This document shows, one piece after another, positions 2,348 to 50,531 of a stretch of 64,000 nucleotides of DNA. The stretch lies in assembly GCA_005400705.1 (NCBI GenBank), contig GCA_005400705.1_4079.1. One strand, 5' to 3'. How positions within the stretch are numbered: position 1 is the first letter of the stretch; every line of letters starts with the position of its first letter. The position numbers and the translations under genes were made by a program. The stretch comes from Escherichia coli. Lineage in GTDB: Bacteria > Pseudomonadota > Gammaproteobacteria > Enterobacterales > Enterobacteriaceae. The notes under the pieces are model-generated. The model was given only the letters and a program-made list of their open reading frames with translations, searched no databases and had not been told where the DNA came from.

Positions 2348-2946
2348 GAAAAAGTTATCAAGAAGCTATTGACTTAATTCGTGAAGTTATCAAGGTGGCT
2401 CCTGCTGCTATTGAGTTCAAGAAGTCCATATACAAGAAGTATGGTTCAATGTCGAGTATGTGCTTTCAAAAGAAACGTAGAGCATTCACTACCCAGTACT
2501 GGAATGATTCTATCATCCTGAGCAATGAGACTCAGCGTATTTTAACACTAGAATCTGAACCTAATGAGTACGGGGAAGGGAACATTTGTGTACCTGATTA
2601 TGATGAAATTAACTTCAACTGCGGTGATTTTGAAACAACATTATTACTTCATGAGGGTTATCCAGAAGGTGATGTATTAGCTGAGTACAATCCAAAAACT
2701 AAAATTCTCAAAAGAGGAATCCAGTTCACTATTAATAACAAAGATGATGTTCAAGCAGCACTGATGCAACTGAGTACAAGTGAACCTATCACTATTAGTG
2801 TAGAAGAGTTATGGGGAATTATTTCAGTACTCAATGAGTGCTATAAAGTAAAATCATTGCGTAAACACAGCATTATATTACATACCAATATGGCAAATAT
2901 AAAATGTAAGCACATTCAAGAAATGGTGGTTCCAGATGGACTTTAA
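2344..2946 (+). CDS. hypothetical protein (200 aa)
   Basis: ORF track; ATGA overlap with upstream gene. Confidence 0.5.
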   Translation: MRKSYQEAIDLIREVIKVAPAAIEFKKSIYKKYGSMSSMCFQKKRRAFTTQYWNDSIILSNETQRILTLESEPNEYGEGNICVPDYDEINFNCGDFETTLLLHEGYPEGDVLAEYNPKTKILKRGIQFTINNKDDVQAALMQLSTSEPITISVEELWGIISVLNECYKVKSLRKHSIILHTNMANIKCKHIQEMVVPDGL

Positions 2947-3520
2947 AGAAATTGAAAGTAAATTAAAGTACTTCAAAGATATCAAACTTCTTTGGGAAAA
3001 GTATAAAGTTGATTACAATTTCAGTGATGATGACACTGTAAAAACAATTGAGATTAATATCAAAATCAAGTTCAAGAATAATAATTATGGTGAAGTAACC
3101 TTAAATCATACTGGTATATCACTCAAGGACTATGATGGTTCAACACTCGCATATTTTGACTTCACACCAGAACCAGGTGAAACACTACTTAGTGAGATAA
3201 ATTCCTATGACATGGAAGTGTTCGGCGGGAATCCGTTACTGTTCCGACTTTCTGAAGATTGGAGTGAAGAATACTACACTTACAAAGATGGTGTAGTACT
3301 TGACATTAATGGTGAAGTTGTGAATGACTTGGAAGAACGCTTGTTCCAAGAATTGTGTGTTTCAAATACTTCATATGCATACAATCATATCCTTGACATG
3401 TTTGATTTATATAGTAAAATAGATGCTGAAATGAATGCACATGGTATTCATTATCTTACAATCAACGACTATGCTCAACTTGAAACTGTAGTGAAAGCAT
3501 TGACTAAAGTACTGAAATAG
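2936..3520 (+). CDS. hypothetical protein (194 aa)
   Basis: ORF track. Confidence 0.5.
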   Translation: MDFKEIESKLKYFKDIKLLWEKYKVDYNFSDDDTVKTIEINIKIKFKNNNYGEVTLNHTGISLKDYDGSTLAYFDFTPEPGETLLSEINSYDMEVFGGNPLLFRLSEDWSEEYYTYKDGVVLDINGEVVNDLEERLFQELCVSNTSYAYNHILDMFDLYSKIDAEMNAHGIHYLTINDYAQLETVVKALTKVLK

Positions 3521-3529
3521 GAATGAAAT

Positions 3530-3943
3530 ATGAAACTGTATCATGCGAGTACTGTAAAAATTGATAACTTTTATATCCCGTATGGTGGTCTTCATATGGG
3601 AGGTAAACACAGTGCTTTGGAAGCTGCATTACGCAAGCTCAGAAGTCCACTGAACGTAGTAGACGCATGTACAGTATACTTGCATACCTTAGAAGTTGAT
3701 GTTGATAACGTGCTTCTGTGTGAAGATTTAGGCAGTGATGATGAGTGGCGTTCACTTATTGAGAATTGCACTGCTCAAGGTTATGATGCTGTTCAGTACA
3801 AAAATGATTACGAGCCAGACAATGTTCCTAGTTTTATGATTTGGGATGCATCTAAAGTTCGCATCATTGAAGTTGATGCTATGCATATGGATGAAGCTGA
3901 AATGATTATCGAAGATTTTCTTGATGAATATGAAGGTGTATAA
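3530..3943 (+). CDS. hypothetical protein (137 aa)
   Basis: ORF track; GGAATGAAATATG context. Confidence 0.5.
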   Translation: MKLYHASTVKIDNFYIPYGGLHMGGKHSALEAALRKLRSPLNVVDACTVYLHTLEVDVDNVLLCEDLGSDDEWRSLIENCTAQGYDAVQYKNDYEPDNVPSFMIWDASKVRIIEVDAMHMDEAEMIIEDFLDEYEGV

Positions 3944-14446: not shown

Positions 14447-14702
14447 AGCTGAACTAATAGTTCATACATATAAAATGATATCAAGTACTAAGTTATCATA
14501 TAGTGAAGATAATCCAGTACTGGATTATTTTGTTGAATTATTGAAAGAGCATTATATTGGTAAATCACTGATTCTTAATAATATTAATTTCACGGTAAAG
14601 GATGTAGCACCTGGAAAAAACGTACTAATAGTATGTGTTACTTCATCTGATAACCCAGTATACCCAATATCAATAATTTTTGAGATATTAGGAGATTTAT
14701 GA
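14439..14702 (+). CDS. small protein, tandem paralog array member
   Basis: ATG 14439 overlaps upstream stop; MTKAELIVHTYKMISS N-terminus fits family. Confidence 0.45.
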   Translation: MTKAELIVHTYKMISSTKLSYSEDNPVLDYFVELLKEHYIGKSLILNNINFTVKDVAPGKNVLIVCVTSSDNPVYPISIIFEILGDL

Positions 14703-14989
14703 ATATCATTTTAATGCAGAAAACATATGCTATATTGGTGAAAGATTATTCCATTACTTTCGATTCACAAGAAAGTGCTCTACATAACCTATACAAAAAC
14801 GTAACACAAGAATACAGAAATATGTTTTCTGACTTAGTAGTAGGAAGGTATTTCAGTACTAGAAAATACCCAAAACTTCAAATAGTTGATGTTTCTTTTT
14901 ATTTCAATGGTCATATTACTATTCATAGTTTAGACCAAGATTCAACAACGTACTTAAACTTTTCATTTGATGAGGTAACATTTTTATGA
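14699..14989 (+). CDS. small protein, tandem paralog array member
   Basis: ATGA overlap; MNIILMQKTYAILVKDY N-terminus. Confidence 0.5.
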   Translation: MNIILMQKTYAILVKDYSITFDSQESALHNLYKNVTQEYRNMFSDLVVGRYFSTRKYPKLQIVDVSFYFNGHITIHSLDQDSTTYLNFSFDEVTFL

Positions 14990-18390: not shown

Positions 18391-19529
18391 CCCTTTTACA
18401 AATATATGAAGATTTAATGCACTTATGTAATACAAACGATGCGTTTTTTTATGTGGATCATAAAAGTCCTGCTGGTGGTACGTATCGTGTATTCAGTTAT
18501 CGTCTAGCATCATACACTGATTTCATGCAACCAAATGCGTTGGAAACCCGTGGCTCTATGTGGGAAATTGATGAAGAAGGTGACATGATACGTTGTGCAG
18601 CACGTACAATGAAAAAGTTCTTCAATGCTTACGAGAATCCTGCTACAATGTTCCCTGCTAACACCACATGCGATGACATTGCGGTAGTGATGCCTAAGTT
18701 GGATGGTTCGATTATCAGTACTTATCGTGATAATGATGGTGAGATTCGTTGTAAATCACATACTGCATTGTATTCTGACCATGCGATTAACAGTACTCGA
18801 CTTATTAACGAGAACCAGAATTTGTACCAGTACATCGACGAAGCGGAACGTTTAGGTTACACAGTTAATATGGAGTATACAAGCCCAGAGTACCGAATTG
18901 TATTACCATATCAGGTAGAACAACTGTTTGTACTGAACGTTCGACATCGTGTGAGTGGTGAGTTGCTATGTGGTAAAGCACTACGTGATAAGTTTCCATG
19001 TCTTGCACAGTACAGTACTAATATGACTGGAAAAGATATTCATCACACTTTTCCGGTACGAAATACCTTCCGTGAAAGCGTGGAGGAAGTTCATAAAATG
19101 CTTGATATTGAGGGTTTTGTGTGCATCCTAAATAATGGGACAATGTGTAAAATAAAGACTGACTGGTACAGTTCATTACATCTTACAAAAGATAGTATTA
19201 TTATTGATTCTCATTTATATGAAGCCGTATTAAATGGTTCAAGTGATGATTTAAAACAATTGTTCAGTACTGATGAATATGCTATGCAAAAGATATTAAG
19301 AATGGAACAATTGGTATTTTCGTGCTATAATGCATTACAAGATGAAGTAGAAAGCTTCGTCAAGGAACACAAGCACTTGGAGCGAAAGGAATTCGCAATG
19401 AAGGTTCAGGAGTGTTTAACTAATGAACTGAATCGTCAGGGCTTGGCCTTTGCAATGTATAACAATAAGAAAGTTGATTACAAAGAGACTCTTATAAAAT
19501 ACATGAAAATTGTACTAAAGGATTTTTAG
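18387..19529 (+). CDS. rnlA: RNA ligase 1 (T4 gp63-like, tRNA repair)
   Basis: N-terminal region collinear with T4 Rnl1 as recalled (FFY...YR[IV]FSY...Y[ST]D...ALE.RG); similar length (380 aa); GAGGT before ATG. Confidence 0.9.
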   Translation: MTLLQIYEDLMHLCNTNDAFFYVDHKSPAGGTYRVFSYRLASYTDFMQPNALETRGSMWEIDEEGDMIRCAARTMKKFFNAYENPATMFPANTTCDDIAVVMPKLDGSIISTYRDNDGEIRCKSHTALYSDHAINSTRLINENQNLYQYIDEAERLGYTVNMEYTSPEYRIVLPYQVEQLFVLNVRHRVSGELLCGKALRDKFPCLAQYSTNMTGKDIHHTFPVRNTFRESVEEVHKMLDIEGFVCILNNGTMCKIKTDWYSSLHLTKDSIIIDSHLYEAVLNGSSDDLKQLFSTDEYAMQKILRMEQLVFSCYNALQDEVESFVKEHKHLERKEFAMKVQECLTNELNRQGLAFAMYNNKKVDYKETLIKYMKIVLKDF

Positions 19530-19559
19530 TACTATCTAGCCTAAGCACAAGGAGAAGTG

Positions 19560-19814
19560 ATGGCTAAACCTAAGTATAAAAATGACGGTTCCCTTTCTCC
19601 GACTGAGTTCAGGAAAATACAAGAAGAAATCGATGAATTACAGCACAAACGCTCAATGAAAGGTGTGAAGATAAGTAAGAAACGAATCGAGAATACCTTC
19701 GGATGTAGTAGTACTGAATACAAGAAGAAAAGGAAACCAAAAGGTGTTAAGCCGAGAATACATGATGTAACTCGCTATACATCGAAACGTGAAAATAAAT
19801 TTGATCCACTATAA
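19560..19814 (+). CDS. small lysine-rich basic protein
   Basis: GGAGA before ATG 19560 (ORF-track start at 19557 is GTG); MAKPKYK N-terminus. Confidence 0.45.
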   Translation: MAKPKYKNDGSLSPTEFRKIQEEIDELQHKRSMKGVKISKKRIENTFGCSSTEYKKKRKPKGVKPRIHDVTRYTSKRENKFDPL

Positions 19815-19823
19815 GGAGTTCAT

Positions 19824-20054
19824 ATGAAAGTTGAAGTTCAGCATAGTATTGTTCAGGATATGTCAGTAGTTAAATTTCTTTCTCTGAAAGATTACTTCAG
19901 ATGTATCAAGTTCCTAGAAGAATCTCAATTACAGTGGACCCCATTAAAGTACAGTTCATCCAATGATACAGCTAGTATTCGTTGTGATGAATCTGTACTT
20001 GTGAAAATCTCCAAACGATTTGGAGTAGGAAAAGTTAATGAGCACAGTAAGTGA
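19824..20054 (+). CDS. hypothetical small protein
   Basis: AAGGAG before ATG. Confidence 0.5.
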   Translation: MKVEVQHSIVQDMSVVKFLSLKDYFRCIKFLEESQLQWTPLKYSSSNDTASIRCDESVLVKISKRFGVGKVNEHSK

Positions 20055-20292
20055 CCTAAAATACTACAACAAAACTGCGGATACGTTTATTACTCATTTA
20101 TATGAAGAATTTAGTCGTATCCGTAAGGAATATACAGGTAAATGTATTTTATATAGTTCTTATCATAGTGGTGGAATTGAAAGTGCTTACATTACTAAAG
20201 TGAAGTTTTCTGATGACTATCAATTACTCTTTGAATTAGATGATTGTTTCGTTATTGAAGCTTGTTTGATAGTGGATGTTCTAGATAATTGA
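20038..20292 (+). CDS. hypothetical small protein
   Basis: ORF track. Confidence 0.45.
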   Translation: MSTVSDLKYYNKTADTFITHLYEEFSRIRKEYTGKCILYSSYHSGGIESAYITKVKFSDDYQLLFELDDCFVIEACLIVDVLDN

Positions 20293-20298
20293 GGACAT

Positions 20299-20613
20299 AT
20301 GAATAAAGAACTTGCATTTGAGAGGATCGAAAAGTTAAAGTACATTGAAAAGGAACTAATAAAATCTGTCGAATCAATGGTCGAAGATTACGTTTTCGAT
20401 TTTAAGAAAACATTGATTGGATGTAAAGTTAAATGCTGGGATCATACAATCAGAGAATGGTTCAGTACTATAATTCTTGATGTTAAAGTATCGCGTACTG
20501 CTATTGGTAATTTAGTAAATGGTGAATGCTTTGTATACACTGAATACAATAACGGAACAAGAAACCTTTCAAGAGGATGGCACAAACTCGAAGATGTAGA
20601 ATTCATTGAGTAA
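20299..20613 (+). CDS. hypothetical small protein
   Basis: GAGGACATATG. Confidence 0.5.
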   Translation: MNKELAFERIEKLKYIEKELIKSVESMVEDYVFDFKKTLIGCKVKCWDHTIREWFSTIILDVKVSRTAIGNLVNGECFVYTEYNNGTRNLSRGWHKLEDVEFIE

Positions 20614-20625
20614 CAAGGAGTAATA

Positions 20626-21558
20626 ATGCCAACTATTACACTAACAGTTGGATTACCTGGGTGTGGTAAAACCACATGGGCAGTTCAAGAAATTAAAAAT
20701 GCCAAATCCAAGACTATCAACATCAACCGTGATGATATTCGTGAATCTATGGCTGGGTCACATGATGCTTACAAATTCAACGATGCTAATGAGCAGTACG
20801 TAACTAATTTACAGTTCAGTGCAGCAAATTCAGCAGCAGAGAATGGTTGGAACATCATCATATCCGATACAAACCTTAAACAACATTTCCGTAATCTCTG
20901 GAAAGTATGGGCTAAAGATAATGGTTATGATTACAAAGAAAAGAACTTCTATGATGATTTTGTACCTAATGAAGACCGTGGTGCAGATGTTCATGAATTC
21001 TTTAAGATTAAAGAGTTCGTAAAACTTTGTAAGAAATATAACCTTCAGCGTGAGCGTTCAGTACAAGATAATATCATTGACACAATGGCAGATACGTACT
21101 ATTATAGTAAGGCATTGCACATTGGTTACTATGGTAATTCACGAGAAGCTGCTGTTATCGTTGATATTGACGGTACTCTTGCTCATAAATGGGGTCGTAA
21201 TCCTTACGATGAAAGTACTGTTCTTCAGGATACACCTGATGAAGAAGTTATTTTGTCTATTATCGCTGAAGCAGTTTTTCATAAACGCAAGATTATCGTC
21301 ATGAGTGGGCGTACTGAAGGGTGTCGTACTGACACCGAACAGTGGCTTAAGAATTGGGGTGTTCCTTACGATGCATTGTTTATGCGAGGCATCGATGATA
21401 AACGTCCTGATGATGTTGTTAAATTCGACCTGTACATGAAAAATGTGGTTAATCAATACGATGTTAAAAAGGTATATGATGACCGCGAAGCCGTGACGTT
21501 CATGTGGCGTAAGCTACTTGGTTTGAAGGTATTTCAAGTAGATTTTGGACGTTTTTGA
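20626..21558 (+). CDS. pseT: polynucleotide 5'-kinase / 3'-phosphatase
   Basis: P-loop GLPGCGKTT near N-terminus, NINRDD, and HAD-type VIVDIDGTLA phosphatase motif; collinear with T4 Pnk as recalled; AAGGAG Shine-Dalgarno. Confidence 0.9.
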   Translation: MPTITLTVGLPGCGKTTWAVQEIKNAKSKTININRDDIRESMAGSHDAYKFNDANEQYVTNLQFSAANSAAENGWNIIISDTNLKQHFRNLWKVWAKDNGYDYKEKNFYDDFVPNEDRGADVHEFFKIKEFVKLCKKYNLQRERSVQDNIIDTMADTYYYSKALHIGYYGNSREAAVIVDIDGTLAHKWGRNPYDESTVLQDTPDEEVILSIIAEAVFHKRKIIVMSGRTEGCRTDTEQWLKNWGVPYDALFMRGIDDKRPDDVVKFDLYMKNVVNQYDVKKVYDDREAVTFMWRKLLGLKVFQVDFGRF

Positions 21559-21577
21559 TAAAATAAATAGTGCATAT

Positions 21578-22285
21578 ATGACAAAAAGGACTTTCTATAT
21601 GCACTATTATATTATATATAAAATAACCAATTTAATTAATAATAAAATTTATATTGGTGCTCATATGACTGATGACATAAATGATGAATATATGGGTTCA
21701 GGTGTTCTGATAAAGAAATCCATTAAGAAATATGGAATTGAAAAATTCAATAAAGAAATACTTTATATTTTTGATAATAAAGAAGAAATGTATAACAAAG
21801 AAAGAGAAATTGTTAATGAACAATTTATACAAAGAAGCGACACATATAACATCAAACGTGGTGGAGAAGGTGGCTACGGCGTAATTGATAAAGAAAATTG
21901 GAAAAAACAAATATCAACGGCACAAAAGAAGCGATATTCTTCAGGTGTTGTGGCTTGGAATAAAGGTAAATCTGTATCAGAAGAAACACGTATTCAAATG
22001 AGTCAGAGGATGAAAGGTCGTTTCCCTGGAGATAAAAATCCTATGCATGGTAAACCCTGTACATATAAAATGACAGATGAAGAAAAAACATCATGGTCCA
22101 ACAATATAAAGAAATCAAACACTGGTAAAAAGAGAACTGATGTTCAAAAACAAAAATATTCTTCGGTCGCGTCAAAACGAATTTGGTTAGTTCATAAAAG
22201 TGGTAAAGTTACTAATACACAAAATGAAAATGACCCACGTTTGAATGATCCAGATTGGCAACGTGGTCAAAAGTGGAGAGAATGA
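21578..22285 (+). CDS. GIY-YIG homing endonuclease (Seg-like) with NUMOD-type DNA-binding repeats
   Basis: YIIYKITNLINNKIYIGAH (GIY-YIG motif), WNKGK and KNPMHGK repeats; start at 21578 or 21599 (ORF-track start 21545 overlaps pseT). Confidence 0.75.
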   Translation: MTKRTFYMHYYIIYKITNLINNKIYIGAHMTDDINDEYMGSGVLIKKSIKKYGIEKFNKEILYIFDNKEEMYNKEREIVNEQFIQRSDTYNIKRGGEGGYGVIDKENWKKQISTAQKKRYSSGVVAWNKGKSVSEETRIQMSQRMKGRFPGDKNPMHGKPCTYKMTDEEKTSWSNNIKKSNTGKKRTDVQKQKYSSVASKRIWLVHKSGKVTNTQNENDPRLNDPDWQRGQKWRE

Positions 22286-33857: not shown

Positions 33858-34353
33858 TACTAATATCTGGTTAGATAACATAATCAAGACATTAGAATTA
33901 ATTAAACTTACATTACAAAAAACTACAGATATTGAAATTAATATTAAAAAAGAAATATTAAACTATTATCATAGAAACAAATATAGCACGTTTATCTCTA
34001 AATTAATTTATGGATTATATGATATTGAAGATATTTGCATCGGTTACAGTACTGGTATTTGCTTCACTGTTAATGGTTTAAAAAATGATTTAAATTTCAG
34101 ACTTTCCGATGAAGAGCAAAAGTTTCGTAGATTTTGTGATAATATTATGGATACAGATAAAATTACATTTGTTATTGAATTAAATCAAACGTGGTCTACA
34201 TATGCAGATAAACCATTTGAAATTAATGAAACAGATGTGTTAAACTATATTCGAGTTATGAAAATTCATGATTTGTGTAAAAACGCATTGTTAAGTATTG
34301 GAGCTTATAATGAAACATACGACTTGGTTGAAGATAGCAGAAGTAGTTGCTGA
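33829..34353 (+). CDS. hypothetical protein
   Basis: ORF track; overlaps start of cd. Confidence 0.4.
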   Translation: MKYTHLSIDDTNIWLDNIIKTLELIKLTLQKTTDIEINIKKEILNYYHRNKYSTFISKLIYGLYDIEDICIGYSTGICFTVNGLKNDLNFRLSDEEQKFRRFCDNIMDTDKITFVIELNQTWSTYADKPFEINETDVLNYIRVMKIHDLCKNALLSIGAYNETYDLVEDSRSSC

Positions 34354-34789
34354 GGAAAGTAAATGTATTTCACAAAAAGTTGGTTGTGTTATTGTTAAAA
34401 ATAACCGAGTATTGAGTACTGGTTACAATGGTACTCCATCAAAACAACCAAATTGCTGTGATGTGAATCAACACTTAGTCAATGATGGGCGTTTTCAAGA
34501 CTGGGTTAGTGATGAAGCAAAGCATGAACATCATGAGTGGAGTAATATTCATGAAATCCATGCTGAAATGAACGCTTTACTCTATAGTTCTCCTACTGAA
34601 CGTCAAGGTGCTACTCTTTACACAACACTACAACCATGTTATACTTGTTCTAAGTTGATCGCAGGTAGTGGGATTTCACGTGTAATTTATCTCAAAAATT
34701 ATCCTCGTACACCACCAGAAGCTATTAAAGTACTGGAAGATGCTGGAATTATTGTTAATTGCATTTATGATAAGGGTCTTGATAAATGA
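34310..34789 (+). CDS. cd: dCMP deaminase
   Basis: HAEMNAL and PCYTCSK zinc-binding motifs; N-terminus collinear with T4 Cd as recalled; GGAG before ATG 34310. Confidence 0.85.
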   Translation: MKHTTWLKIAEVVAEESKCISQKVGCVIVKNNRVLSTGYNGTPSKQPNCCDVNQHLVNDGRFQDWVSDEAKHEHHEWSNIHEIHAEMNALLYSSPTERQGATLYTTLQPCYTCSKLIAGSGISRVIYLKNYPRTPPEAIKVLEDAGIIVNCIYDKGLDK

Positions 34790-37436: not shown

Positions 37437-38189
37437 ATGATATCAGAAAAATTTATAAGCAATGAAGGTAAAAAGCGATTACTGATTATATCAGGTGCAG
37501 GACTTTCTGTTGAAAGTGGTATGGAACCTTTTCGATTTGATGATGGTTTGTGGGATACATTTAAAATTAATGATGTATGTAACATTGCGAGTTTAACTAC
37601 AAAATATCATGTTGTTCATTCTTTCTATAATACATTACGTGTAAAATTGGGACAATGCGAACCGAATGCAATGCATTATTTTATAAAATCGTTAGAAGAT
37701 CAATATGGTGATTGCTTCCTTCATATGACTTCTAACATGGACGATCTTTATACTCGTATTGGTGGTCATGAGCTTAAACTTCATGGAAACTTGTGTGAAG
37801 TTATTGAAAATTATAGTATCAATTCCGATGATTATAATGTTATTAACTGCGGATACGAACCATACATACCAAAACATGATGTTTTTGCTAAACCAAATGT
37901 AGTAATGATTGGAGAATATCATCGTTATGTTGATGGTATTCGCTTACCAATTTACGAAGAACGAAATAATGTGTTGAAATCTCTTAATGAAAATGATACA
38001 GTTATTGTAATTGGTAGTAGCGATACAGTACTGGTATGGTCGAGATTAGCAGCAGCATTGCCATGTTATAGTGTTAATGTTAACATTCGTAAAAATGATA
38101 ATGATTTTTTGTTTAATGAAAAAGTTATCAAGCCAGCAACCAAAGCAATACCGCATCTAGAGACTATAATTAAGGAACGTATGAAATGA
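37437..38189 (+). CDS. Sir2-family (sirtuin/CobB-like) NAD-dependent protein
   Basis: GAGLSVESGMEPFRFDDGLW, TSNMDDLYTRIG and LHG align with CobB GAGISAESGI / TQNIDNLH / HG motifs; AAGGA before ATG 37437. Confidence 0.75.
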   Translation: MISEKFISNEGKKRLLIISGAGLSVESGMEPFRFDDGLWDTFKINDVCNIASLTTKYHVVHSFYNTLRVKLGQCEPNAMHYFIKSLEDQYGDCFLHMTSNMDDLYTRIGGHELKLHGNLCEVIENYSINSDDYNVINCGYEPYIPKHDVFAKPNVVMIGEYHRYVDGIRLPIYEERNNVLKSLNENDTVIVIGSSDTVLVWSRLAAALPCYSVNVNIRKNDNDFLFNEKVIKPATKAIPHLETIIKERMK

Positions 38190-38737
38190 GTGTTAAAGAA
38201 GTTCCCTTTGGTGAATATGGCACACGTGCAAATTTTGTATTTTGTTATTTCTTTGCAAGAAAATGCAACCCTTACAAAAACTATGAGTTGAATGATATAC
38301 CAGAAGTAAATTTAGTATTACTGCAATTACGATGGGATGGTCTTCTTGGTGGATGTGGTGGAACCGTAGAAAGTACTGATATCTCACTAGAAGATGCGTT
38401 GTGTCGTGAAGTTCAAGAAGAAATGGATTACAATATTTTTGTTTCCCATCTTCGACCACTCAAAACTTTTGAAATTTACCCAGGTGCAAACAGTCATAGT
38501 TTTAGCTATGAAGTGAGCTATGACGAGTTGAAACACATTAGAGATGGATACACTAATGCTAAACATGCAAGTGCAGAAGTTGCTGGTGTAAATTTATGTC
38601 ATATTTCTCGTTATTCTAAGGGACAAAATCGAGAAGCGGGATATCATAATCTTATGACACAGAACTTCATCGGTACAGCAAAACAAGAATTGGAGTATCT
38701 GGTTCAAAAAGAAAACTTACTAATTAGTTATCTATAG
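38186..38737 (+). CDS. Nudix-like hydrolase (divergent Nudix box)
   Basis: GGCGGTVESTDISLEDALCREVQEEMDY carries the REVQEE core with non-canonical spacing; ATGA overlap with Sir2 gene. Confidence 0.5.
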   Translation: MSVKEVPFGEYGTRANFVFCYFFARKCNPYKNYELNDIPEVNLVLLQLRWDGLLGGCGGTVESTDISLEDALCREVQEEMDYNIFVSHLRPLKTFEIYPGANSHSFSYEVSYDELKHIRDGYTNAKHASAEVAGVNLCHISRYSKGQNREAGYHNLMTQNFIGTAKQELEYLVQKENLLISYL

Positions 38738-38746
38738 GAGTTTAAC

Positions 38747-39426: not shown

Positions 39427-40866
39427 ATGAAAAAATATACAATTGACACAAACGTACTACTATCTGACCCGAATGCATCTATTGCTTTTGATGGTGCTGC
39501 AATCATTCTACCATTTACAGTACTGGAAGAATTAGATTCGATTAAGAGTCGTAATGTAGATGTTTCACGCGATGCTCGTGTTGCTATTCGTAACATTGAA
39601 GCAATTATTGCAGATGCATCACATGACGAGATTAGTAGTACTGGTGTTAATATTGCTGATGTTCATACCAATATGAATCCTGATAGCAAATTGTTTGTTA
39701 TTACAAACGAAGAAGCTGAGGCACTAATTCGTACTAAAGGTACAGAAGAGAAAGTTCAAACCCTTCTCAAAAGTACTGTACCTGATGATAAAATCATTCT
39801 GGTAGCTTTAGCAACAGAATCAGTACTGGTAACTCGTGATATCAACATGCGTATCAAAGCACTAAGTTATGGTGTCGAGGTACAAGATTATCGCCATGAT
39901 ATTGTTATTGGTGATAGTGATTTGATTCACATTGGTCAACACCATCTGGAAATCAATTTTTGGGAAGTATACAGCAACTTAACCAATACTAATATTCAAT
40001 CCGAACAAGTTGGTCGTCGTTTGTATCATTACATTTCTAAAAGCTTGATTGAACATCTGCTTCCACAAAATCTATGCATCGGTGATTATCTATATGATGA
40101 TGCTGACGTATTATTTGTGTACGAAGGACAATCAGCAATTGAGGAAGATGATGGAACACTAACACCAGAAGATATTTTGGTATTCCAAGATATTGGACAA
40201 TCAGTAGCTTTACGTGCTAAAGTATGGGATATTAAAGCAAAGAATATCCAACAAGCACTCGCCATCAACAGTATTCTCGATCCTGATGTACATCTAACAG
40301 TACTGCTAGGTTCTGCTGGTACTGGTAAAACACTAATTACGATTGCTACTGCATTAGAATTAGTACTGGAAAAATGTAAATACGACCGAATCATCTTCTC
40401 TAAAACTCAAGACTCACAGTTTGAAGATATTGGTTTCTTGCCAGGTTCAGAAGCAGAAAAAGTGATTCCATTCTGTGGAGCCGCAATTGACGCGTTAGAG
40501 TTTCTTCATAAAGATGATGCTAACCCACAAGGTAGTATTGAAGAGATTATGAAACGTAATGTTATTCAATTTAAAGCACTAAACTTTGTACGTGGACGTT
40601 CATTCACCAACACTATTCTAGTAGTTGATGAATTCCAAAACATTACACCTGCACAAGCCAAAACAATCTTGACACGAGCAGGATTAAACTGTAAAGTAGT
40701 AATTATGGGTAACTTGAGTCAGATTGACAGTAAGTTTATTAGTCCTGTTAACAGTGGTTTGACATATGTAACTGAGAAGTTTAAAGATTGGGCAGGTTGT
40801 CGTGTCATCGAACTTGAAGGTGTTGTTCGCTCACCACTAGCTGAATTTGCTGAAGAAAATATGTAA
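39427..40866 (+). CDS. phoH: PIN-domain + PhoH-like ATPase
   Basis: N-terminal YTIDTNVLL..LEELD (PIN-like); Walker A GSAGTGKT; Walker B VVDEFQN. Confidence 0.85.
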   Translation: MKKYTIDTNVLLSDPNASIAFDGAAIILPFTVLEELDSIKSRNVDVSRDARVAIRNIEAIIADASHDEISSTGVNIADVHTNMNPDSKLFVITNEEAEALIRTKGTEEKVQTLLKSTVPDDKIILVALATESVLVTRDINMRIKALSYGVEVQDYRHDIVIGDSDLIHIGQHHLEINFWEVYSNLTNTNIQSEQVGRRLYHYISKSLIEHLLPQNLCIGDYLYDDADVLFVYEGQSAIEEDDGTLTPEDILVFQDIGQSVALRAKVWDIKAKNIQQALAINSILDPDVHLTVLLGSAGTGKTLITIATALELVLEKCKYDRIIFSKTQDSQFEDIGFLPGSEAEKVIPFCGAAIDALEFLHKDDANPQGSIEEIMKRNVIQFKALNFVRGRSFTNTILVVDEFQNITPAQAKTILTRAGLNCKVVIMGNLSQIDSKFISPVNSGLTYVTEKFKDWAGCRVIELEGVVRSPLAEFAEENM

Positions 40867-40870
40867 TATT

Positions 40871-43132: not shown

Positions 43133-44104
43133 ATGAAAACTAAAATTATTTCTGAACAAAAAATTGGCAATACTACAGTACTGAATCTTGAAGTTCAAGG
43201 TCTTAGTAATGTTCGTTCTCTTACGGTTTGTACTCAGAGAGATGATTTGACTGATTTCTATAGCTCAGAATACATGTCAGAAGAACCTTGGGGTATGGGA
43301 TGGTTGGACGGTAGTAGTTATATCAGTTCACGTTATAGTTTTGGTTCTCATGAAAATATTGAACAATTAAAAAATGAGTATATTAAACTCAGTGATACTA
43401 TTGAAATGAAAGAAGAAGATTGTGTAGAACTTTTCATTTTTGAATTCGATGCCGGAAATGGTAATTCATTACTAGTAAGTAATATTGAAGAACATTTAAT
43501 GTATCATGAAATTGAAGATGTAGATTTTGAAAGTATTAAAAATGTTGTTCATATGGTTGGTGGTAGTATTACTGATGATTCAGATATCGGTCATAATATT
43601 TCACTGTGCTTAATTTCTCATCCAAAAACTCGTGGTTTTAAAGTTCCACAAGATGAAACTTACGTGTCTGAAACTGCTGATGAAGGAATTTATCCTTGGA
43701 ATGATTATGTAGAATACTATGGTCATTTCTGTTCTGATACAAAAGAACTGAAAAAAGGCGAACAATATTTTGATATGTTCCGTGCTGCACAGCGTTTAGT
43801 ACTGAATAATACTGAACTATTTCCTGATCGCGGCGAAGAAAATATGATTGATATTATCTTCAAGAACTATGATTATGTACAGAACATTCCTGATAATGTT
43901 CATTTGGAATATGTTCACGGTTCTTCAAACAAATTCTATAATATTGAATTGAATGCTCCAGTGTGTGAAGTAATTATTGAGTACGGTGCTATTGGTAAAA
44001 CCAGTACTACTGATGGTGAAGAATTCGAAACTATTGAAGAAGCACGTAAGTTCTTCGAGAAGAAAGTAATTTCCAAAATTAAAAGTGGTTATAGCCCAAA
44101 ATGA
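43133..44104 (+). CDS. hypothetical protein with WGR-like C-terminal domain
   Basis: C-terminus SSNKFYNIELN...EYGAIG...EEFETIEEARKFFEKKVISKIKSGY follows the WGR-domain pattern with WGR replaced by EYG. Confidence 0.45.
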   Translation: MKTKIISEQKIGNTTVLNLEVQGLSNVRSLTVCTQRDDLTDFYSSEYMSEEPWGMGWLDGSSYISSRYSFGSHENIEQLKNEYIKLSDTIEMKEEDCVELFIFEFDAGNGNSLLVSNIEEHLMYHEIEDVDFESIKNVVHMVGGSITDDSDIGHNISLCLISHPKTRGFKVPQDETYVSETADEGIYPWNDYVEYYGHFCSDTKELKKGEQYFDMFRAAQRLVLNNTELFPDRGEENMIDIIFKNYDYVQNIPDNVHLEYVHGSSNKFYNIELNAPVCEVIIEYGAIGKTSTTDGEEFETIEEARKFFEKKVISKIKSGYSPK

Positions 44105-45296: not shown

Positions 45297-45911
45297 ATGA
45301 CTACATCTGAAAAGTACTGGTGGATTTTGGCTCATCCTAAATTCATAAACAAAGATATGGTTCCAGCTAGGATTGATATAGAACCTCATGATGTGTGTCC
45401 AATGACAAATCGAATTGAAGATTTCAAAGCATTGAATACAAAGACTCAATTTTGGGTAGAATTTCTTTCACCAATGTATATTGAGCAAGACGACGAATGG
45501 GTACAAGCACATGATTATCAATTGGATTGTGGTGGTGATACGTATGAAGAGGCGATTGATAAATTATACAAAAATGTGCTAAACACATATGGTGATTACA
45601 CCCAACAAGAAGCAGATAACACATTTAATAAGATCCATGCATTCAAATCTACTCCATCAATTTTTAATCCTACTAAAACTGTTTGGGAGGAACGACACAG
45701 TTGGAGTTCATGTGTAATCGATGAAGAAACCAAAGAAAAAATCATCGATGATATAAAAAATTTAAAAAATACGATAGAAGCCTTGCGTGAATTCATAATG
45801 TCTTGTACAATAGAACAACAGAAAGAGGCAAAGATACATTTGGAGAGTGAAGAATGTAAACTTTGGGTTCTAGAGAAATCTATTGAAAAGGGTATAGACT
45901 TAGACTTATGA
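45297..45911 (+). CDS. hypothetical protein
   Basis: GGAG 6 nt upstream of ATG 45297 (ORF-track start 45285 is TTG). Confidence 0.5.
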   Translation: MTTSEKYWWILAHPKFINKDMVPARIDIEPHDVCPMTNRIEDFKALNTKTQFWVEFLSPMYIEQDDEWVQAHDYQLDCGGDTYEEAIDKLYKNVLNTYGDYTQQEADNTFNKIHAFKSTPSIFNPTKTVWEERHSWSSCVIDEETKEKIIDDIKNLKNTIEALREFIMSCTIEQQKEAKIHLESEECKLWVLEKSIEKGIDLDL

Positions 45912-46276
45912 ATAGTAAATTGGAGAAACTAATCGAAGAATTACGCCAGATGCCACCTATTGAACAAGTAGGAAATTACAAACGGTATCGTGTTATTGCT
46001 CGTGCACTTGATAAAAAAGGTAGAGTACTGGCAACTCGCACAAATTCTTATACACAGACTCACCCAGTACAGAAGGGTTTCGCCATTCGTGCTGGGCGAC
46101 CGCAAGGTGAGTTTCTTCATGCTGAAATTTCATGTTTACTGGCTGCTCGTGCTGATGTTCATACTTTACTGATTGCACGGATAAGTAAAGATGGAATTCC
46201 TGTTCCGGCTAAACCATGTGAAATTTGCTCATTAGCAATAAAAGAATATGGGGTGAAAGAGATTATCCACACATGA
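45908..46276 (+). CDS. small cytidine/deoxycytidylate-deaminase-fold zinc enzyme
   Basis: HAEISCLL and PCEICS (H[AC]E ... PCxxC) zinc-binding signature; ATGA overlap. Confidence 0.6.
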   Translation: MNSKLEKLIEELRQMPPIEQVGNYKRYRVIARALDKKGRVLATRTNSYTQTHPVQKGFAIRAGRPQGEFLHAEISCLLAARADVHTLLIARISKDGIPVPAKPCEICSLAIKEYGVKEIIHT

Positions 46277-46494
46277 AAATTGAAAGATATGCTAAGCATA
46301 CTGTTGGGTGTGTAAATGATATATTCTATTATTATATTTTTGCACCTGAACTACGTTTTCAAATCACAACATACAATGATGGCAGATTTAAAGATACAAA
46401 CTTCCTCATAACCGACTTAGCAAAGTATGCGAATACAGAACATTTTAATCATTTAGTATTTGTGTACTGTATACCAAACCCAAATAAAAAGTAG
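46273..46494 (+). CDS. hypothetical small protein
   Basis: ATG 46273 overlaps upstream stop (ATGA); ORF-track start 46225 lies inside the deaminase gene. Confidence 0.4.
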   Translation: MKIERYAKHTVGCVNDIFYYYIFAPELRFQITTYNDGRFKDTNFLITDLAKYANTEHFNHLVFVYCIPNPNKK

Positions 46495-46864: not shown

Positions 46865-47083
46865 ATGGAAAAATACGATATAATTTACGATTATTATGGT
46901 AAGGCTTATATGAAGTGTGGGCGTTATGTTGAACTCTCTAATAGAGAATCAATAGACCCCCACACTCTTATAACAATTCATAATTCGTACTATAAAAAAG
47001 TTACAATAGCTAATTTTGCAACATACGTAAATAATCCTTTATTTCCTTACATTATTCAGTACTACTGTAGAGTTATCAAATAA
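46865..47083 (+). CDS. hypothetical small protein
   Basis: ORF track. Confidence 0.45.
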   Translation: MEKYDIIYDYYGKAYMKCGRYVELSNRESIDPHTLITIHNSYYKKVTIANFATYVNNPLFPYIIQYYCRVIK

Positions 47084-47680: not shown

Positions 47681-47783
47681 ACTTGTCATAGGTTGTAGTG
47701 CACTTGCTGCATATATGCTTTTTTCCGCACCAACCAATGTATTACTGTTAATTTGGGCAGTTGTTATATTAGCAGTACTTTAA

Positions 47784-47806
47784 AGCACCCTAGTGGTGCT
47801 TTTTCT
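47784..47806 (+). terminator. rho-independent terminator
   Basis: stem AGCACC...GGTGCT followed by TTTTCT. Confidence 0.65.
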
Positions 47807-47875: not shown

Positions 47876-47881
47876 TATAAT
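47876..47881 (+). promoter_or_regulatory. -10-like TATAAT upstream of nrdD
   Basis: TATAAT hexamer; no convincing -35. Confidence 0.3.
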
Positions 47882-47942: not shown

Positions 47943-49748
47943 ATGCAATTAGATAAATTATATACTGACGTAACGAATTTCCTCAATCAGAGCAATACTG
48001 ATCTTACCAACGAAAATGCGAACAAAGATGCGAAATGCGTCAATACACACAGGGATTTACTTGCAGGTATCCTATCTAAGCATTATTCACAAGATGTTAT
48101 TCCAAATGAGCTAATGCAGTGGCATAATGATGGTTATGGTCATATTCATGATTTAGACTACTATATCAGCCCATTAACCAACTGTTGCTTAGTTAACTAC
48201 CCAGATATGCTAAAAAATGGATTTACCATTGGTTGTGCCAAAATTGAAGAACCAAAGAGTTTTAGTGTAGCATGTACAGTACTGACACAGATTGTACAAG
48301 CTGTAGCTAGTTCCCAATACGGCGGTCAATCGTTGGCTCACATTGATGTCGGTTTAGAACCTTACGTTCAAAAGTCATGGGATAAGCTGTTAGAAAAACA
48401 AAAGAAATATAATCTAAGTGATGAGTTCATTGAAGAAGAATTACGAAAAGAAGTATACGATGGATGTCAAACATTACTTTACCAGACTAATTCAATGATT
48501 AGCACTAATGGACAAGCTGCATTCATTTCTCTTAGTTTAGGGCTTAATACTTCTAAATTTGGTAAATTAATCACTGAACAGTACTTAAAAGTTCATGAGA
48601 ATGGTTTAGGTAAAGATAAGATTACTCCAGTGTTTCCTAAAGTAATTTTCTTTTTACAAGATGGTATAAACATGAATACCAATGATAGTAATTATGACCT
48701 TAAACAGTTAGCTATGCGTTGTGCATCAAAACGAATCTACCCAGACTTTGTTTCAGTTCCATTAAATCACAAAGTGACGGGAAGTAGTAGTACTGCTGTA
48801 ACACCGATGGGATGTCGTTCATTCTTAGGAAAATGGGAAGATTCAAATGGAAATGAACAATACAACGGTCGTTTCAATTTAGGTGTGGTTTCTATCAATT
48901 TACCTCTAATTGCTCTTGAGAGTGATTCTGATGGAGAGTTTTTTGATAAGATAGACGAGCATATGAATATTGCATATCGTGCTCAGATGAACCGTGTGGA
49001 GCGTTTAAAAGGCACTAAAGCGAAGCAGAATCCAATTTTGTTCATGGAAGGTGCATTAGCACGTTTAGGTGCAGAAGAAACCATTGACAAGCTATTTTAC
49101 AATGGTTATGCTAGTATTAGTATTGGTTATGTTGGTCTTGTTGAATGTTCAGAAATCCTCACTGGTTCTATCAGTAAGGAGTTTTGTATGTCAGTACTGA
49201 ATTATATGAAAGTAAAATGTGATGAGTTCAAAAAAGAAAGTAATATTGCTTTTAGTCTATATGGAACTCCAGCAGAGTCGCTTTGTTATAAATTTGCACG
49301 TTGCATTGAAGCAAAATATCCTTCAGTACTAAAACGTGATTACATCACAAATTCCTTCCATCAACCAGTATGGGTAGAAAGTTCTCCATTTGATAAATGG
49401 AGTTATGAAGAAGGGTTTGCTTACCTAAGTAACGGTGGAAACATCAGTTATGTTGAATCTCCAAACTTAGCAAACAACATTCAAGCACTTGAAACATTAG
49501 TTAACTATGCGTACACTAAGATACCATATTTTGGTATTAACCAACCAGTTGACCATTGTTATGAATGTGGCTTCCAGGGTGAGTTCAGTGTAGATAAACA
49601 TGGTTTCCACTGTCCTGTATGTGATAATCGTAATGAGAAGACAATCTCAGTGATTCGTCGTGTTTCTGGGTACTTGGGTAATCCTTCTTCGCGTGGCTTC
49701 AATAAAGGCAAGCAACAAGAGTGTTGTGAGCGTATTCAGCACAAATAA
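47943..49748 (+). CDS. nrdD: anaerobic ribonucleoside-triphosphate reductase (class III)
   Basis: C-terminal zinc ribbon CYECG...CPVCD and glycyl-radical motif RRVSGYLGN; AAGGAA before ATG 47943 (ORF-track start 47880 overlaps the -10). Confidence 0.9.
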   Translation: MQLDKLYTDVTNFLNQSNTDLTNENANKDAKCVNTHRDLLAGILSKHYSQDVIPNELMQWHNDGYGHIHDLDYYISPLTNCCLVNYPDMLKNGFTIGCAKIEEPKSFSVACTVLTQIVQAVASSQYGGQSLAHIDVGLEPYVQKSWDKLLEKQKKYNLSDEFIEEELRKEVYDGCQTLLYQTNSMISTNGQAAFISLSLGLNTSKFGKLITEQYLKVHENGLGKDKITPVFPKVIFFLQDGINMNTNDSNYDLKQLAMRCASKRIYPDFVSVPLNHKVTGSSSTAVTPMGCRSFLGKWEDSNGNEQYNGRFNLGVVSINLPLIALESDSDGEFFDKIDEHMNIAYRAQMNRVERLKGTKAKQNPILFMEGALARLGAEETIDKLFYNGYASISIGYVGLVECSEILTGSISKEFCMSVLNYMKVKCDEFKKESNIAFSLYGTPAESLCYKFARCIEAKYPSVLKRDYITNSFHQPVWVESSPFDKWSYEEGFAYLSNGGNISYVESPNLANNIQALETLVNYAYTKIPYFGINQPVDHCYECGFQGEFSVDKHGFHCPVCDNRNEKTISVIRRVSGYLGNPSSRGFNKGKQQECCERIQHK

Positions 49749-49756
49749 GGTAAATT

Positions 49757-50089
49757 ATGGATTTAAAGCCAATTGTGGTTAACAAATACAAAGAACCGTA
49801 TGATGTGTATATTGGACGTGGGTCTAAATGGGGAAACCCATTTACCCATATTAAAGATAAACAAACCAAAGCCGAGTTCATTGTTAGTACAAGAGAAGAA
49901 TCAATTGAAAAATTCAGAGAATACATTATTGAACGTATTTCTTGTGGAGAAGTTAAGATTGATGAATTACTTGAACTCGCAGGGAAACGCCTTGGTTGTT
50001 TCTGTAAACCAAAATCATGTCACGGCGATGTTCTTGTCGAAATAGTGAGTGCAATATTAGATGAATTACCAGACGATAATCAAGGATGA
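49757..50089 (+). CDS. hypothetical protein between nrdD and nrdG
   Basis: ORF track; GRGSKWGNPF motif. Confidence 0.5.
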   Translation: MDLKPIVVNKYKEPYDVYIGRGSKWGNPFTHIKDKQTKAEFIVSTREESIEKFREYIIERISCGEVKIDELLELAGKRLGCFCKPKSCHGDVLVEIVSAILDELPDDNQG

Positions 50090-50531
50090 TTTAGTAAATG
50101 GAGAGGGCGTTCGCTGCTCTTTATTTGTTAGTGGGTGTTCGCACGGATGTGATGGTTGCTTCAATGAAGAAGCATGGGATTACAGAAGTGGTCAATTGTT
50201 CAGTACTGAAACAGTTGAGATTATACTACAGGAACTAAAAAAACCATATGTTAGTGGTTTGTCACTTCTAGGCGGCGATCCATTAATGAAAAAGAATATA
50301 GATGAAGTTTTAAATCTATGCAAAGTAGTTAAAGAAACTTATCCTAGTAAAACTATTTGGTGCTGGAGTGGGTATACTTTAGATGAGATTATGAAAAATC
50401 ATGCTAAAGATATACTTCAGTACTTAGATGTATTAGTTGATGGTAAGTTTATTGAGTCCGAAAAGAATTTAAAATTACCTTTTCGTGGTTCAAATAATCA
50501 AAGAATACTATATAAAAATAAAGATTTTTAG
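50061..50531 (+). CDS. nrdG: anaerobic ribonucleotide reductase activating protein (radical SAM)
   Basis: CSHGCDGCFN radical-SAM cysteine cluster; adjacency to nrdD. Confidence 0.85.
   Translation: MNYQTIIKDDLVNGEGVRCSLFVSGCSHGCDGCFNEEAWDYRSGQLFSTETVEIILQELKKPYVSGLSLLGGDPLMKKNIDEVLNLCKVVKETYPSKTIWCWSGYTLDEIMKNHAKDILQYLDVLVDGKFIESEKNLKLPFRGSNNQRILYKNKDF

Follow-up and report, generated by a model that had tools for sequence, protein, structure and literature searches.

The allosteric dCTP/dTTP site of deoxycytidylate (dCMP) deaminases is marked by a G-Y-N-G motif, and the tetrameric cytidine deaminases (CDAs) are characterized by the motifs C-A-E, P-C-G-x-C-R-Q and a ribose-binding N-x-E. Iyer et al. 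(2011, PMC3239186) divided the CDA fold by topology, with a 'C-terminal hairpin' type on one side and, on the other, a 'helix-4' type that includes dCMP deaminase and TadA. PF00383 enzymes such as the phage 5mC-selective mSCD-B5 and the dCMP/dCTP deaminase bi-DCD of PBCV-1 have substrates beyond dCMP, and phage 'dCMP deaminases' have been shown to act on triphosphates and single-stranded DNA (10.1101/2024.12.05.627091). Because the substrates of mSCD-B5 and bi-DCD reach triphosphates and single-stranded DNA, a 'dCMP deaminase' label does not by itself settle what an enzyme acts on. Here we consider a small protein, the mini deaminase, encoded in a 64,000-nucleotide stretch of DNA (the window) from contig GCA_005400705.1_4079.1 of an Escherichia coli assembly (GCA_005400705.1), which also encodes a canonical dCMP deaminase (dCD). 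The mini deaminase represents a large, unnamed, phage-specific family with a distinctive signature and a four-strand or hairpin-type architecture, for which no dedicated model was found in NCBIfam, PADLOC, Pfam or PHROG.

The gene occupies positions 45908-46276 of the plus strand, opens with ATG and encodes 122 residues. The original prediction, a 122-residue open reading frame (ORF) carrying HAE...PCxxC motifs on exactly this span, is borne out by the ORF listing of the window, by the translation and by a PF00383 (dCMP_cyt_deam_1) score of 29 bits (E 1e-6), above the gathering score of 25; PHROG_174 'dCMP deaminase' is matched at E 3.3e-13. Escherichia phage BF17 (MW822008.1, Asteriusvirus, 383 kb) matches the window region at 100% identity and records the product, itself a 100% match, as the 'hypothetical protein' QXN76209.1 (a window coordinate equals the BF17 record coordinate minus 49274, or the locus coordinate + 28999); the region shows 99% identity to phAPEC6, PBECO4 and others, and 92% to 121Q. 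Nei-Gojobori dN/dS is 0.07 against the orthologue of phage Sharanji (dS 0.23) and 0.03 against a 121Q-type sequence (dS 0.54), indicating that the gene is under strong purifying selection, and the ORF is real and looks expressed. A nonfunctional remnant is ruled out by these ratios together with the invariant catalytic residues. The same gene is named dCMP or CMP/dCMP deaminase in the records of 121Q, JP4, E9.1, Turkey3 and ph0011, and a paper on phage CBB lists two CMP/dCMP deaminases, both assigned to dUMP production, so that, as an annotation, the second deaminase is not new; the literature yielded no experiment on the gene.

The translation runs GEFLH71-A72-E73-ISCLL, then AKP103-C104-EIC107-SLAIKEYGVKEIIHT to the stop at the C-terminus. 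The zinc-ligand histidine and catalytic glutamate of H71-A72-E73 (codons 46118-46126, plus strand) stand at the start of a helix (residues 72-80) and are conserved in 198 and 199 of 199 aligned sequences, respectively, while the two zinc-ligand cysteines of P103-C104-E-I-C107 (46214-46228, plus strand), at the start of helix 105-114, are present in all 199 and the proline in 198. Both motifs are kept throughout alignments of 24, 40 and 199 sequences. The zinc triad, which the original prediction had made the touchstone of its claim, is complete, and because the catalytic machinery is intact the mini deaminase should be an enzyme. Variants occur at the alanine of H-A-E, which is replaced in some members (H-S-E in gp260 of phage phiKZ, H-V-E in gp40 of Pseudaeromonas phage KLEP7), and one representative (P0146) reads R-A-E, lacking the zinc-ligand histidine, and may be inactive. 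A search of all six frames of the window with the pattern [HC][AV]E...[PS]CxxC returned two matches only, the mini deaminase and the ORF of the canonical enzyme, cd; the claim of a second CDA-fold deaminase beside the dCMP deaminase, and a much shorter one (122 against 159 residues), thus holds.

Two further segments set the family apart. The signature N46-S-Y-T-Q-T-H52-P53-V-Q55 (46043-46072, plus strand; N in 196 of 199 sequences, H and P in 189 each, Q in 179) leads into an insert helix (residues 53-61) between strand 2 and the HAE helix, and aligns where canonical enzymes carry G-Y-N-G. The second segment, R91 followed by a loop of about ten residues, S-K-D-G-I-P-V-P-A-K102 (46178-46213, plus strand; R in 196 of 199), lies between strand 3 and PCxxC and is an insertion relative to canonical dCMP deaminases in an hhalign alignment, opened by R91 and closed by K102. 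Near-invariant positions among the 199 sequences are D35, G38, N46, T/S51, H52, P53, Q55, A59, L70, H71, A72, E73, R91, G96, P103, C104, C107 and A110, giving the overall signature N-S-Y-x-K-T-H-P-x-Q ... L-H-A-E ... R ... G ... A-K-P-C-x-I-C.

An AlphaFold2 model built from the 24-sequence alignment (pLDDT 92.5, pTM 0.85) confidently predicts a CDA fold. Its elements are helix 3-14, strands 28-34 and 40-45, the insert helix, the HAE helix, strand 86-92, the PCxxC helix and strand 118-121, after which the chain stops. There are thus four main strands, with no fifth strand of the usual kind and no helix 4. By the DSSP assignment of this model the C-terminus consists of strand 4 (K-E-I-I-H-T, 46259-46276, plus strand) directly followed by the stop codon. 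Of 191 family sequences, 65 share this short tail, which ends at strand 4 and spans 15 residues beyond PCxxC. The other C-terminal form adds some 11 residues ('T-T-x-x-G-x-x-E-x-x-x'), which in the model of one long-form member (P0201, pLDDT 90.6) fold as strand 117-122, a two-residue turn and strand 125-130, forming a beta-hairpin at the C-terminus. Long-form members would accordingly be of the 'C-terminal hairpin' and not of the 'helix-4' topology as distinguished by Iyer et al. 2011 (PMC3239186).

Comparison of the single mini-deaminase sequence with solved structures gave noise only, and a family profile was used instead. Among solved structures this profile matched best the dCMP deaminase of cyanophage S-TIM5 (PDB 4P9C, E 1.9e-10); next came a Mycoplasma TadA-like deaminase (1e-7) and then the T4, S. 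mutans and human dCMP deaminases, and hhalign placed the family against eight phage canonical dCDs with 98.5% probability (E 1.5e-15, 111 columns). A structure search of BFVD returned only unnamed viral proteins or generic viral 'dCMP deaminases'. With dCMP deaminases (T4 Cd, S-TIM5, S. mutans ComEB-type) the family shares HAE, PCxxC, a conserved asparagine ending strand 2, an insert that separates this strand from the HAE helix, and a phage nucleotide-metabolism context next to ThyX and dCD. The canonical enzymes differ in length and charge, being of 135-190 residues with an isoelectric point (pI) near 6.6 (6.64 for the window cd), whereas family members are typically of 100-140 residues with a median pI of 9.6 (10-90% range 9.0-10.0; 9.67 for the mini deaminase itself).

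The other described groups are no closer in their defining features. Homotetrameric CDA (for example B. pseudomallei CDA, PDB 3DMO) and blasticidin-S deaminase have CAE, PCGxCRQ and N-x-E where the mini deaminase has HAE, PCEICS and N-S-Y, and their strand 5 is missing from the mini deaminase, although long-form relatives are predicted to have an antiparallel hairpin of strands 4 and 5. The C-terminal tRNA-binding helices of TadA and ADAT2 have no counterpart, there being no helix after strand 4, and no TadA model among NCBIfam models or PRK10860 matches the mini deaminase, for which the sole NCBIfam match was the CDA model TIGR01354 at 13.7 bits against a cut-off of 113.65. Nor was there a match to toxin models, an N-terminal delivery domain or an adjacent immunity gene, as in the polymorphic-toxin deaminases (MafB19, DddA and SsdA types). 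Unlike the mini family, mSCD-B5 and bi-DCD have 140-154 residues with the full dCMP-deaminase fold, and occur in linkage with cytosine-modifying thymidylate-synthase homologues; the mini family showed neither a linkage of this kind nor DNA modification. By sequence, then, the mini family appears to belong to the CDA-fold superfamily, yet to lie outside canonical dCMP deaminases, tetrameric CDAs, TadA and toxin deaminases. The original prediction had left the family assignment to profile and structure comparison, and the answer is divided: in sequence the protein stands nearest to dCMP deaminases, whereas the defining features of dCMP deaminase, CDA and TadA are all lacking.

The family is large. 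A profile search of 1.84 billion representatives (clusters at 50% identity) found 4294 clusters at E<=1e-3 and 1030 at E<=1e-10, and a second, word-indexed search found 2025 proteins at E<=1e-5. All of the best 150 matches listed are single-domain proteins of 96-166 residues, and no domain fusion was found in three loci inspected for it (L072, L073, L076). Among GenBank phages, tblastn located the family in 197 records, from Asteriusvirus and related jumbo phages of Klebsiella, Erwinia, Pectobacterium, Yersinia and Salmonella to phiKZ-like Pseudomonas phages (phiKZ gp260, 32% identity), Salicola phage SCTP-2, Aeromonas phages and Synechococcus myoviruses. IMG/VR yielded 469 confirmed stretches on contigs of 4-370 kb, while bacterial and archaeal genomes, scanned at one per species, yielded two contigs of metagenome-assembled genomes (MAGs) only, a weak negative given the narrow search pattern; the 'phage-only' label rests mainly on viral-contig matches and source labels.

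With moderate confidence we read the mini deaminase as a deaminase of cytosine nucleotides or nucleosides that is free of regulation and serves the dTTP supply of AT-rich phages. This is the best-supported role, suggested by the kinship with dCMP deaminases, by a neighbourhood of dCD, ThyX and dihydrofolate reductase (DHFR) genes, by the position of the family member of KLEP7 as the only deaminase of that phage, and by AT-rich genomes; the purpose is probably ordinary nucleotide metabolism. The protein would be a stand-alone zinc deaminase, with zinc held by H71, C104 and C107 and E73 as proton shuttle, acting on a free cytosine (deoxy)nucleotide or nucleoside such as dCMP, dCTP, CMP or deoxycytidine (dC). 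It would add cytosine-to-uracil flux through dUMP to dTMP for a phage of 33% GC (33.2% in the window) in a host of 50% GC, to be used by the phage thymidylate synthase, DHFR, thymidine kinase and ribonucleotide reductases. Since it lacks both G-Y-N-G and the C-terminal helix-strand unit of hexameric dCDs, it would escape dCTP/dTTP feedback and work alongside the regulated cd, not in its place, and this freedom would offer a reason for keeping the mini gene beside cd. The conserved basic residues K50, H52, R91 and K102 may bind phosphate. In CDADC1 and related DCTD-like enzymes the phosphates are bound by a lysine immediately ahead of the PC motif, along with further lysines and arginines, and enzymes specific for triphosphates carry more of them (PMC12088426); K102 of the mini family sits at a comparable position to that lysine, a precedent that makes dCTP or CTP as plausible a substrate as dCMP. 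The monomer being so small, oligomerization is probable, and would complete the active site as in tetrameric cytidine deaminases. What the analysis shows is the ORF with its motifs, fold, family, selection and genomic associations; the substrate, the absence of regulation, the oligomeric state and the physiological role of the mini deaminase are inferred. Base composition points weakly the same way: carriers are AT-rich (36.8% GC in phiKZ, median 39.8% over 85 viral loci), which favours the dTTP-supply role, though many phages are AT-rich.

Whole genomes place the gene in three different settings. In phiKZ (280 kb) gp260 (L094 46758-47117), the H-S-E variant, is the only CDA-fold ORF, and gp214 is a homologue of dCTP deaminase, Dcd (phmmer 5e-16, with an E. 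coli Dcd sequence as the query); thymidylate synthase, thymidylate kinase, DHFR and ribonucleotide reductase are also encoded. In KLEP7 (complete, 117 kb, 35.3% GC) gp40 (139 residues, the H-V-E variant; L099 34566-34985) is again the only CDA-fold ORF, no Dcd homologue was detected in the genome, and thymidylate synthase, NrdDG and a MazG-like pyrophosphohydrolase are present. In Asteriusvirus the mini deaminase and the canonical cd are both present, alongside thymidylate synthase, DHFR, a pyrimidine 5'-deoxynucleotidase, NrdAB and NrdDG. The mini family therefore occurs alone, with Dcd or with canonical dCD, and in all three cases with thymidylate synthase. In the Asteriusvirus Sharanji, the neighbourhood of DHFR and NrdAB also holds genes for an NT5C-like pyrimidine 5'-deoxynucleotidase and a phosphoribosyl-ATP pyrophosphohydrolase/MazG-like protein (123089-123715 and 141726-142457; L096 5090-5716 and 23727-24458), and a thymidine kinase has been reported for relatives. 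Taken together, these enzymes would open a nucleoside-level route from dCMP through dC and deoxyuridine (dU) to dUMP, with a possible part for a deoxycytidine deaminase. The same genomes bear on the idea that the mini protein is a partner subunit of the canonical dCMP deaminase, altering its activity or regulation in the manner of ADAT2/ADAT3 or of the two domains of CDADC1. This we regard as very improbable indeed, as phiKZ and KLEP7 have the mini protein and no canonical dCD, the two genes of the window are 11.6 kb apart, and the catalytic residues show a strict conservation that inactive partner subunits lack.

The neighbourhood was sampled in 80 viral loci, in which ORFs were called, neighbours clustered and recurrent clusters annotated. 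A canonical dCD (135-148 residues) lies within 5 kb of the mini gene in 11-12 of them, representing five mini sequence clusters; it is directly downstream in five loci, and in L029-L031 and L034 its start overlaps the mini stop. Marine phages are where the two genes adjoin, together with ThyX. ThyX is near the mini gene in six of the 80, in orders such as mini-dCD-ThyX (L056) and mini-ThyX (L063), and DNA ligase and RNase H are further recurrent neighbours.

Several observations weigh against the proposed role in dTTP supply. A plain dCMP deaminase would look redundant beside the canonical cd of the window or the dCTP deaminase of phiKZ, and the family-wide pI near 9.6, compared with 6.6 for cd, would also suit a polynucleotide substrate. 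In place of the G-Y-N-G of canonical dCDs, the window cd included, the mini deaminase has T-N-S-Y (g-x-N-S-Y in the family). The C-terminal unit of helix 4 and parallel strand 5 is missing, the hhalign alignment ending before it, and with it probably the pyrimidine-wall tyrosine of DCTDs. No NCBIfam dCMP-deaminase model matches the mini deaminase, and a literature search found no biochemical assay of any family member, phiKZ gp260 (PHIKZ260) included. The predicted topology, resembling that of CDA and blasticidin-S deaminase, would keep alternatives alive, as may the analogy with phage 'dCMP deaminases' that act on triphosphates or single-stranded DNA (10.1101/2024.12.05.627091). Finally, in 16 of the 80 loci (eight clusters, in varied orders, at about 0.1-3 kb) the mini gene is found near a module of unknown function, made up of genes for an ATP-grasp protein (RimK/R2K-like), a Peptidase_C26 glutamine amidotransferase (GATase), a phiEco32-like COOH-NH2 ligase (PF14395) and an Amidoligase_2 protein (PF12224). 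Module loci include L015, L016, L018, L020, L036, L040, L043, L047-L050, L082 and L083, and in the first four of these the mini deaminase lies between ATP-grasp and GATase; no functional data on the amidoligase module were found in the literature.

Taken in another direction, such points could mean that the family is not a dCMP deaminase but a new minimal class acting on polynucleotides, (d)CTP or cyclic-nucleotide signals. We consider this unlikely, and it would explain the persistence of the mini gene next to canonical dCMP or dCTP deaminases. The module also raises the prospect of another heterocyclic substrate, be it guanine or guanosine, a pterin, a riboflavin precursor, a blasticidin-like nucleoside or a product of the ATP-grasp/GATase/amidoligase module itself. 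That prospect appears distinctly unlikely: the window, phiKZ and KLEP7 all have the gene with no such module nearby, module loci also hold replication and nucleotide genes, so that the linkage may reflect a shared 'DNA metabolism' region, and sequence profiles put dCMP deaminases first.

A small, open-sited and very basic protein could also be imagined as a polynucleotide deaminase that edits host or phage RNA, tRNA or single-stranded DNA early in infection. In Sharanji (OR545507.1), positions 95470-95561 (minus strand; L098 471-562) encode a tRNA-Ser with anticodon ACU, and hence A at wobble position 34 (A34), in the loop C-U-A-C-U-A-A, according to both the record and ARAGORN. This tRNA is 100% identical in 18 Asteriusvirus records; BF17 is not among its 19 matches. 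To our knowledge, bacterial A34 tRNAs are otherwise essentially limited to tRNA-Arg(ACG), the loop of which differs only at position 36. As a general role, TadA-like editing of phage tRNAs was rejected, since none of the seven phiKZ tRNAs has A34, the tRNA-Arg of Asteriusvirus (as in Sharanji) has the anticodon UCU, and tRNA-Ser(ACU) was not found in BF17; the host tRNA-Arg(ACG) is a formal possibility as an A34 substrate. Besides the tRNAs, the protein has neither an RNA-binding C-terminal helix nor, among the best 150 family matches listed, a fused nucleic-acid-binding domain, it lacks an NCBIfam TadA match, its recurrent neighbours are dCD, ThyX and DHFR rather than RNA enzymes, and unregulated deamination of DNA would threaten the phage's own unmodified genome. 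On balance, a polynucleotide deaminase seems unlikely.

The timing of expression and the company of small early genes invite yet another explanation. An early primary transcription start has been mapped for phiKZ gp260 (PMC8244752), the gene of the window stands in an early accessory gene train, and in three further contigs the mini gene is found among small early genes. In one of these loci, L088 (Logan contig SRR22731810_13517, 152 kb), a metallophosphoesterase gene overlaps the mini start, a DHFR-domain protein is encoded 1.2 kb downstream, and an Acb3-like (PF25187) and an Acb2/Tad1-hairpin-like (PF24729) gene, at 2830-3543 and 14447-14833, lie within about 6 kb of the mini gene. The mini deaminase might thus deaminate an immune signal, such as the cCMP of Pycsar or an adenine-containing cyclic oligonucleotide, an anti-defence role in keeping with a phage-specific family (469 viral-contig matches against two MAG contigs, with the narrow search pattern) that is apparently not redundant with dCD or Dcd. 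Yet neither PADLOC nor any known anti-defence family matches the mini deaminase, the family is very broad and well conserved where counter-defence genes are typically patchy, its recurrent linkage is to dCD and ThyX rather than to anti-defence genes, and literature searches found no precedent, making this role very unlikely.

In the window the mini deaminase is embedded in a long plus-strand gene train, with ATGA overlaps at both ends. The stop of a 204-residue ORF of unknown function (PHROG_16370; 45297-45911, plus strand), which is directly upstream of the mini deaminase in ten related jumbo-phage loci, overlaps its start, and its stop overlaps the start of a 73-residue ORF lacking a PHROG match (46273-46494, plus strand). 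Nearest to it among nucleotide-metabolism genes, 1.7 kb downstream, come nrdD, a small ORF and nrdG (47943-50531, plus strand; BF17 annotation), for the anaerobic ribonucleotide reductase and its activase, a position that speaks for the dTTP-supply role. The nrdD ORF itself opens at 47880, upstream of the start annotated in BF17 at 47943. A 72-residue ORF at 46865-47083 is unannotated in BF17 and annotated in Sharanji (gp465). A promoter scan around the mini deaminase gave background only (24 promoter-like sites against 22.5 expected). The sole terminator-like hairpin between 43.5 and 48 kb, an 8-bp stem with a T-run at 47782-47802 just upstream of nrdD, may mark the end of the small-gene train.

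The canonical cd (34310-34789, plus strand), 11.6 kb upstream of the mini deaminase, is the 'deoxycytidylate deaminase' of BF17, with 41% identity to T4-type Cd. It carries G-Y-N-G, HAE and PCYTC, and matches ComEB, related NCBIfam models and anti-phage dCTP deaminase models, the NCBIfam matches falling below their cut-offs. Its orthologue in the near-identical Sharanji is named 'tRNA-specific adenosine deaminase', a label that the published Sharanji paper repeats, as a translation factor; the Sharanji entry is this orthologue, and neither a third deaminase nor the mini gene. The same plus-strand early region also encodes an RNA ligase (19383-20525), a polynucleotide kinase (21349-22281), a Sir2/CobB-like NAD-dependent deacylase (37438-38190) directly followed by a Nudix hydrolase (38187-38738), a PhoH-like protein (39428-40867) and a WGR-domain protein (43133-44104), of which the tRNA-repair and NAD-related genes could bear on host defence.

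If the ordinary reading in terms of dTTP supply is true, a very common phage family of more than 1000 clusters, unnamed and lumped with 'dCMP deaminase' by Pfam and PHROGs, would provide AT-rich phages with a minimal and probably unregulated route from cytosine to uracil nucleotides, and its recognition would correct an inconsistent annotation ('hypothetical', 'dCMP deaminase', 'TadA'). Should the substrate prove different, this would explain why the mini enzyme is retained beside a canonical dCMP or dCTP deaminase. A new minimal class, if true, would also offer the smallest natural CDA-fold scaffold, of about 100 residues with four or five strands, for base editing, and, with a different substrate, one useful for methylation sequencing too, a use that NEB found for phage dCMP-deaminase-like enzymes. 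Both phiKZ gp260 and the gene of Asteriusvirus lend themselves well to testing.

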